Part shown: piece after piece, positions 4,557-4,838 of the stretch | Position numbering within the stretch: position 1 is the stretch's first letter | Layout of the letters: each line of letters begins with the position of its first letter | Assembly: GCA_039698055.1 (NCBI GenBank) | Contig: JBDKTL010000004.1 | Location: 1-19,196 of the forward strand | Length of the DNA: 19,196 bases | Direction of reading: 5' to 3' | Source: Methanoregula sp. | GTDB taxonomy: Archaea > Halobacteriota > Methanomicrobia > Methanomicrobiales > Methanospirillaceae | Made by a program: the position numbers and the translations under genes | The notes under the pieces: model-generated | The model's database searches: none | What the model saw: the letters and a program-made list of their open reading frames with translations, nothing else | Told to the model about the DNA's origin: nothing

Positions 4557-4838
4557 ATGCGACAAAATGCAGCGTATGATAGGGATGATCCTGGTCCAAC
4601 TGCGATAATCCCTCGTAAAGCGGGCACAGCAGGAACAGGATTTTCCCGTTTCCCGTCAGCCTGCAAGGATCGGATGGCAGACACCAAGTGCTTACTCACG
4701 GGCGGAATGACATGGGCAACCGCAACCGGAAAAAACGGTTTAGCGGAAACCGGCGGTCCCGAACCGGGAAATGAGTTTAGGGGACGCCCAAAAAACAGAG
4801 AAGTTCAGAACAATCTGGCACATCCCGGTTGTTTTTAA
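4557..4838 (+). CDS. Degenerate, truncated NifH homologue (mini-NifH, 93 aa); functional pseudoenzyme or pseudogene
   Basis: Colinear with NifH residues 1 to about 112: MRQNAAYDRDDPG vs [30 protein letters not shown] vs [31 protein letters not shown] vs [24 protein letters not shown] vs [16 protein letters not shown] at 4547-4550 and an open frame throughout. Confidence 0.65.
   Translation: MRQNAAYDRDDPGPTAIIPRKAGTAGTGFSRFPSACKDRMADTKCLLTGGMTWATATGKNGLAETGGPEPGNEFRGRPKNREVQNNLAHPGCF

Follow-up and report, generated by a model that had tools for sequence, protein, structure and literature searches.

A nifH-derived leader of the nif operon in Methanoregula sp. probably combines an upstream open reading frame with a structured RNA

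The nitrogen fixation (nif) genes in a 19,196-nucleotide (nt) stretch of Methanoregula sp. DNA (assembly GCA_039698055.1, contig JBDKTL010000004.1; hereafter the window) are preceded by a 93-codon open reading frame (ORF) directly upstream of nifH. A first-pass annotation had described this frame as a catalytically dead mini-NifH. Comparing the leader with those of related genomes, we found that two nucleotide islands in it, GGCGGAAUGA and UCCCGAACC, are invariant and complementary to each other, and that the leader accompanies nifH in all the nifH-bearing genomes examined from one family of methanogens. The leader is probably a nifH-derived cis-regulatory element that combines a translated upstream open reading frame (uORF) with a structured RNA, rather than the gene of a conserved protein.

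A first search of 61 related genomes gave orthologous frames upstream of nifH in two species, and a profile search of 108 genomes of the genus gave further ones. The 54 leaders analysed comprise 15 loci from this genus profile search, 12 nifH loci where the peptide search had given nothing, 21 loci from a scan for the island pattern and 6 from a covariance-model scan. All 54 show the same order, namely the operator, the TATA box, usually a Shine-Dalgarno (SD) sequence with an AUG, the two invariant islands, and nifH. The elements in the window are as follows.

4482-4495, + strand: NrpR-type operator-like palindrome GGAAGGAATATTCC (GGAA-N6-TTCC), read from the sequence; the aligned block is kept in relatives
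4506-4517, + strand: TATA box TATAAATATTTG, near-invariant in 27/27 leaders of the genus
4547-4559, + strand: SD sequence GGAG (4547-4550) and leader ORF AUG (4557), homologous to the start of nifH itself (ATG CGA CAA)
4557-4838, + strand: leader ORF (the 'mini-NifH'), 93 codons, TAA stop at 4836-4838, reading through both RNA islands (the 'class 1' frame)
4679-4789, + strand: match of covariance model R1, E 1.3e-18, 77 bits, the single match in the genome
4692-4699, + strand: 5' strand of outer helix P1, from single-sequence folds, with 6 of 8 pairs changed on both sides
4700-4711, + strand: island 1, with bulged G 4700, GGCGG 4701-4705, 3-nt bulge AAU 4706-4708 and GAC 4709-4711 (helix P3)
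4712-4755, + strand: variable insert forming its own hairpin(s), free in sequence and length, ~25-85 nt between helix ends across genomes
4756-4773, + strand: island 2 and 3' strand of P1, with GUC (P3), CCG (P2), AA bulge 4762-4763, CC, then GGGAAAUG (P1 3' strand)
4839-4940, + strand: remaining leader up to nifH, poorly conserved, with neither a conserved terminator nor a second promoter
4941-5765, + strand: nifH (Pfam Fer4_NifH, E 1.3e-125), first gene of nifH-nifI1-nifI2-nifD-nifK-nifE-nifN-...-AnfO-like

In 48 aligned leaders, GGCGGA..GA of island 1 (4701-4710 in the window) and UCCCGAACC of island 2 (4757-4765) were invariant in 48/48, and the sequence outside the islands was close to saturation. 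The GGCGG of island 1 (4701-4705) pairs with the CC and CCG of island 2. The core pairing thus described comprises GG/CC, CGG/CCG across the AA bulge, and GAC/GUC, with 100% of the pairs formed. The leaders of genomes G338 and G332 read UCCUGAACC at island 2, and the pair is preserved there as G.U. The 3-nt bulge of island 1 has the form A-N-W, being AAU in the window and AAA, AUU, AGU, ACU or ACA elsewhere. At the homologous codons of the real nifH, each site is encoded by 2-4 synonymous codons across 26 genes, and therefore the freeze in the leader islands lies at the nucleotide level. The possibility that the nifH mRNA itself makes the same long-range pairing (LLLHG with PGVG codons) was discarded, the pairing not being kept in the nifH genes of the 26 genomes.

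The structure around the core is supported by changes in its outer parts. The sequence of P1 differs by lineage yet stays paired (ACUCUUGG/CCGGGAGU vs CUGCUUUC/GGAAGCAG, the latter in the Methanospirillum-labelled lineage). The spacing between the islands ranges from 62 to 122 nt, and differing insert sequences give hairpins at the same place in each clade. Folding of single sequences recovered the architecture in 25/27 leaders and, in a second set, in 12/14, the fold z-scores of the set of 14 running from -0.28 to -4.85. RNAalifold gave the same core without prompting, with the outer pair 13-164 being CG in 24 leaders, UA in 12 and UG in 9. In the named structure 78.8% of cells were paired, compared with 21-52% when the partners were slid, and its covariation score lay above those of all 500 shuffles. 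A scan of positions 4300-5100 against Rfam 15 (E <=10) returned four chance-level matches, all at least 25 bits below the gathering scores.

The encoded peptide gave a different picture. Changes per codon position in the first ~45 leader codons of eight clades numbered 184/172/194 (p 0.52), whereas the first 45 nifH codons of seven largely overlapping clades showed 6/2/106 (p 2e-40). The orthologous peptides are only 15-27% identical to the window peptide. The annotation had also pointed to a retained equivalent of Arg100; the CGC codon is present at 4785-4787, but the residue is not conserved, most orthologues reading GVGYGG or GVGYGW there.

The distribution of the motif was examined in the family genomes that are at least 90% complete (n=116), with a nifH threshold of E <=1e-130. 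The results showed that nifH is present in 42 of the 116, spread over 5 genera, and that the leader motif is found in all 42. Model R1 matched 44 of the 116, nearly always once per genome; beyond the 42 it matched G010, which has a truncated nifH, and G250, a weak false match. All R1 matches that were checked lie ~75-200 nt upstream of nifH, and the 62 genomes scanned from the five remaining families gave no R1 match. The island pattern has a single occurrence in the genome of the window and is present in 56 of 401 genomes of the order, and the reversed control gave zero matches. Among the closest 80 nifH loci in genome_contigs, the motif was absent from the 78 loci of bacteria-labelled records and occurred only in two archaeal records, Methanoregula sp. 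and an uncultured Methanospirillum sp. Several candidates were set aside: the weak R1 matches in G250 and G014:C47 are not upstream of nifH, the pattern matches in G320 and G383 fall within coding sequence that is not near nifH, and the weak protein matches L008 and L010 at the level of the order do not adjoin nifH. A pattern match in G026 is chance-like in appearance, and there are six further pattern matches outside the family.

The ORF descends from the 5' end of nifH. By BLASTP, the ORF and the adjacent NifH are colinear, with 27/98 identical residues (E 0.003 in a single comparison) and with one 18-residue gap and two smaller ones. Taken alone, the window ORF had no Pfam or NCBIfam match, and none of 17 long orthologous peptides tested singly matched Fer4_NifH (E <=1). 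A profile built from these 17 peptides had 23 matches in PDB, all of them nitrogenase Fe proteins (best 6nzj_A, E 1.6e-10), and since the profile reaches significance in this way, the likeness to NifH is more than chance. The profile search proposed in the annotation was therefore negative for the single sequence and positive for the orthologue profile, and the homology to the NifH N-terminus was borne out. As the profile matches only NifH chains and is colinear with NifH 1-97, with a gap of ~21 residues, we regard the leader stretch as a genuine, old relic of the nifH 5' end. All orthologous peptides have the same gap of ~20 residues relative to NifH, and the leader of G225 still reads GPKSDSTRLLLGG next to island 1. 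On the adjacent NifH the profile scored 35.0 bits vs 26.3 bits on the other NifH-like protein of the genome, which disfavours the suggested alternative of a remnant of a different nifH paralogue.

The PDB matches show common origin and not membership of the NifH (Fer4_NifH, PF00142) family. The leader ORF resembles nifH in being colinear with NifH residues 1-97, in its nifH-type SD sequence with ATG CGA CAA and in its place directly upstream of nifH. It differs from it in having neither Walker A nor the cluster cysteines, in the deletion of ~21 residues and in ending at about residue 100, and with its amino-acid sequence apparently unconstrained it is a relic of the gene and not a family member. 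The motif changes that the annotation had quoted, Walker A to DRDDPGPT and GVGCAGR to GNEFRGR, both read as given. In the orthologues, the place of Walker A (GKGGIGKS) is taken by SPGDIGSS, IPGGTGSS and similar sequences. The ligands of the 4Fe-4S cluster of NifH are Cys97 and Cys132 (A. vinelandii numbering). At the first of these positions the window has F, most of the other 16 peptides have Y, F or L, and L109 has E; the leader frame stops before the second. As the annotation had argued, the relic is not a recent copy of nifH, the codons at 4752-4769 and 5196-5213 differing in 5/6 third positions.

The start of the frame and its position relative to the helix are conserved. The 93-codon frame with its GGAG ribosome-binding site (RBS) was found between the operator/TATA region and nifH, as first described. 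An SD sequence with AUG was found in 40/41 leaders of the genus and also in sister lineages, including AAGGAGG with AUG in 6/6 sister genomes with short leaders. In the window, 51 nt separate the start of the TATA box from the leader AUG, and in the other 26 leaders this distance is 43-52 nt. Frame 0 has no stop between the AUG and island 1 in 36/40 leaders, and the other two frames have none in 10/40 and 8/40. Of the three phases that the AUG could have relative to island 1, just two are used; close clades have switched frame class several times, but never to the third phase.

Class 1 comprises 19 leaders of the genus (window included) and G276. In the 19, frame 0 is stop-free in 17 and the other two frames in 0/38, in agreement with the earlier observation that the frame is retained without decay into stops. 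Class 2 comprises 20 of 40 leaders, with uORFs of 47-52 codons, of which 16 stop at a UGA in the island-1 bulge (4707-4709; +7) and 4 stop 8-14 nt before island 1. In the six short-leader sister genomes, an AAGGAGG-led uORF of 11-15 codons ends at the base of the outer helix, exactly 15 or 14 nt ahead of island 1. The uORF of G258 ends at the bulge UGA, and those of G338 and G332 read through, so that the stop lies past island 1 in 22 leaders (the 20 of class 1, G338 and G332). Altogether, 49/54 leaders have an SD-led uORF ending at or beyond -15. A programmed frameshift between the frame classes was rejected, the NifH-like frame not being open downstream in class 2 leaders.

Two side observations concern the start codon. 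At the conserved start position, the leader of G074 (L083) reads ATA (GGAGGCCACATACGACAC), and because of this its uORF start seems to have been lost; the RNA module of this leader is intact. The window has an additional in-frame ATG at 4545, 12 nt upstream of the conserved start, which gives a 97-codon version of the ORF. This ATG falls inside the SD region and was not seen there in the other 26 leaders compared.

Based on these comparisons, we propose the following model. Positions 4530-4940 would form the 5' leader of the nif operon mRNA, made from a single NrpR-operator/TATA promoter. The leader may have arisen through an ancient tandem duplication of the first ~100 nifH codons, RBS and start codon included; the duplicate would then have undergone an internal deletion of ~21 codons, and most of the copy would have drifted freely. 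One part that was kept would be the RNA module, in which the former 'LLxGG' and 'GPEPGVG' codons now pair together, and which is closed by the long covarying outer helix and capped by the variable hairpin. The second would be the inherited SD sequence and AUG, driving a uORF that runs into the outer helix and stops just before it, at the UGA in the 3-nt bulge, or beyond, as in this window. In 49/54 leaders, a ribosome translating the uORF would need to unwind the outer helix. Occupancy of the uORF by ribosomes and folding of the module would exclude each other, and the leader may link the output of the nif operon, through mRNA elongation, mRNA stability or translation of nifH, to the status of translation. 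The comparisons show the homology, the pattern of conservation, the structure and the strict tie to nifH; translation of the uORF, and what the regulation acts on and in which direction, we infer. Because the helix-bulge core is invariant in sequence, a trans factor may recognise it, and the core might be the binding site of a nitrogen-signal ligand or protein. Among the options named in the annotation, a translated leader that tunes nifH expression appears to fit the data best.

Several observations weigh against this model. No expression platform was recognisable in the leader: an oligo-T terminator was not found, the window having TTGTTTTTAA at 4829-4838 and T-runs not being conserved in 21 leaders scanned; the nifH RBS has no consistent pairing partner in full-leader folds; and the core forms in only ~19/27 of such folds. 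The copy in the window has a weak P1 and folds only marginally better than shuffles (z -0.91). The core helices carry no covariation signal because their pairs never vary, and the support for pairing comes from P1, the variable hairpin and the one G.U change. Five of the 54 leaders (G074, G225, G288, G192 and G097b) have no clear SD-led uORF reaching the helix. Class 1 leaders keep an 84-131-codon frame through both islands, and the tails after island 2 show a weak third-position excess in clades B and D (11/13/27), which makes a remaining role of the peptide conceivable in class 1 lineages. Finally, the genomes are related, and the k-of-n counts given here therefore overstate independence.

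Alternatively, the RNA module could be a self-contained sensor that either binds a metabolite, as a riboswitch, or is bound by a protein or small RNA; the uORF would then be an incidental inheritance from nifH. The core is invariant in sequence beyond what structure needs, which suggests sequence-specific recognition; the module is single-copy and strictly tied to nifH, and G288 and G192 keep it with no obvious uORF reaching it. However, the few conserved unpaired bases (G/A, A-N-W, AA) would make a small metabolite pocket, the lack of a recognisable expression platform counts here too, and the SD sequence with AUG and the frame open up to the helix are conserved well beyond chance. We consider this explanation unlikely, with about one chance in a handful.

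The reading that had been proposed first, a functional 93-residue dead mini-NifH acting as a decoy or competitor on NifDK, NifEN or NifI, can draw on the strong SD sequence and AUG, on the class 1 frame that is open in 17/19 leaders when the other frames never are, and on the third-position excess in the tails of two clades. The even distribution of changes over codon positions in the first ~45 codons argues that the peptide is not under purifying selection, and the orthologues have diverged to the low identities given above. The only conserved motifs, GG and PEP, and the sole invariant residues sit on the nucleotide-invariant RNA-pairing sites, with third positions frozen. Half of the 40 leaders read another frame and end at or just before island 1, the sister lineage has a uORF of only 11-15 codons, 'Arg100' is not conserved, and Walker A and both cluster cysteines are absent. 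We regard such a protein as very doubtful.

An RNA processing signal was also weighed, namely a site resembling a bulge-helix-bulge (BHB) for the archaeal splicing endonuclease, with removal of the insert, or a site for another RNase that sets the 5' end or stability of nif mRNA. In the archaeal BHB, two 3-nt bulges on opposite strands flank a 4-bp helix. The leader likewise has a bulge on each strand, one on either side of a short central helix and in the BHB orientation, and the segment that they enclose is free in sequence and length, like an intron. In all 48 aligned leaders it departs from the canonical form, the bulges measuring 3 nt and 2 nt and the central helix 3 bp. When the insert is removed in silico, the resulting frame is neither longer nor better conserved than control frames, leaving excision with no coding support, and invariant sequence is not expected of a purely structural signal. 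We see only a slim chance for this reading.

A functionless, slowly decaying nifH pseudogene fragment, with patches conserved by gene conversion or low mutation, would account for the clear derivation from nifH and for a stretch that mostly drifts without codon bias. The islands, however, are invariant across five genera with saturated flanks, the leader is kept in 42/42 nifH-bearing genomes, and P1 shows compensatory changes. Gene conversion cannot explain the islands, because their third positions differ from those of the neighbouring nifH and vary within nifH. This makes a neutral fragment hardly credible. A DNA-level element, in which the islands bind a transcription factor or act as a roadblock within the transcribed leader, would suit invariant sequence blocks downstream of an NrpR-controlled promoter, but is highly improbable, since the islands are complementary as RNA and form neither a DNA palindrome nor a direct repeat, their spacing varies over 62-122 nt, and the flanking helix covaries.

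The uORF-plus-RNA leader that we favour can be compared with known systems, since leader uORFs and structured leaders are known kinds of control. Bacterial operons are controlled by leader peptides or uORFs in the trp and his attenuators and in ermC-type translational attenuation. As in these, the mRNA opens with a short SD-led ORF that extends into an RNA helix; the peptide sequence is largely free, and it is the frame and the placement of its stop with respect to the helix that are conserved. Unlike in these, there is no run of regulatory codons and no conserved terminator/anti-terminator pair; the system here is archaeal, the helix core is invariant in sequence, and the leader derives from the regulated gene. 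The interplay between riboswitch and uORF treated in the part of PMC11260477 consulted, on atypical B12 riboswitches of Mycobacterium tuberculosis, likewise joins a structured leader RNA and a translated uORF in one control region; the leader here has no Rfam match and a much smaller conserved core.

What is understood of nitrogenase control in methanogens concerns chiefly transcription, through NrpR, and the activity of the enzyme, through NifI1,2. In Methanosarcina mazei, sRNA154 acts on nif mRNA. This would be a parallel to the leader as we propose it, the nif mRNA of a methanogen being controlled after transcription in addition to repression by NrpR; sRNA154 is trans-acting and belongs to another order, whereas the element here is in cis in the leader and occurs in one family of Methanomicrobiales-like genomes only. 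Mention of sRNA154 is made in the part of PMC11549558 consulted. A literature search, with supplements, which could list small ORFs, outside its scope, yielded no account of an ORF or RNA in the nifH leader of methanogens, and the excerpts of PMC11456600 consulted mention no nifH uORF.

The RNA motif is new: it is absent from Rfam, confined to one methanogen family, strictly tied to nifH and built from a duplicated piece of the downstream gene. Its presence in every nifH-bearing genome examined in the family points to an unexplored post-transcriptional layer, and it appears to be a clear case of a coding fragment recycled into regulatory RNA for its parent gene. What preserves the two most conserved peptide motifs of NifH in the leader is solely the pairing between their codons. 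In gene calling and nifH surveys, the leader frame may be listed, probably wrongly, as a small NifH-like protein. More tentatively, and with the odds at present against it, this could be the first archaeal case of ribosome-sensing leader control of an operon, in which a uORF and an RNA module, exapted from a duplicated fragment of the regulated gene, tune nitrogenase synthesis post-transcriptionally to translational or nitrogen status in Methanoregula- or Methanospirillum-like methanogens. Methanoregula and Methanospirillum are genera with cultured species. The regulatory hypothesis is directly testable, because the element is compact (~110 nt) and single-copy and its closest named carriers are labelled as these two genera.

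With regard to the promoter, TATAAATATTTG is the only conserved promoter element upstream of nifH, and no second conserved TATA box was found between leader and nifH in the leader alignment. The palindrome GGAAGGAATATTCC sits 11 nt before the TATA box. We take GGAA-N6-TTCC, sited next to a TATA box, to be the NrpR operator consensus; the arrangement fits an NrpR-type promoter layout, and the palindrome is a candidate operator.

Some individual loci deserve mention. In G010 (L029/L003, G010:C25, ~1500-2230 in locus coordinates), the leader ORF continues into the 3' half of nifH; the junction lies ~60 nt after island 2, and the rest of the leader and ~122 nifH codons are gone. Either nifH has truly been inactivated by a deletion in this genome, or the assembly has collapsed the two homologous copies into one. 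G097, a genome with 7% contamination, has two nifH genes (G097:C41 and G097:C57; L096 and L215), each with a diverged leader motif, which could reflect a genuine duplication or the binning of two strains together.

The window NifH is 82-90% identical to the NifH of records labelled Bacillota, Sporomusa, Peptococcaceae and Lucifera (L117-L123), and identity across the genera of its own family is 88-94%. Because the bacterial-labelled proteins are about as close as those of its own family, a nifH lineage shared with, or transferred between, these records is suggested. None of the bacterial-labelled loci with similar NifH has the leader motif. A second NifH-like gene in the same genome (G000:C26:27236-28033, L022) encodes 270 amino acids, is 52% identical and has an intact Walker A and both cysteines; we take it to be probably a CfbC-type paralogue of F430 biosynthesis. 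The nif cluster in the window consists of nifH, two P-II genes, four Oxidored_nitro genes, assigned as nifD, K, E and N by their order, and an AnfO-like gene. The last (PF09582, E 1.9e-63) lies at 12676-13329, downstream of nifN, and ends an otherwise Mo-type-looking nif cluster.

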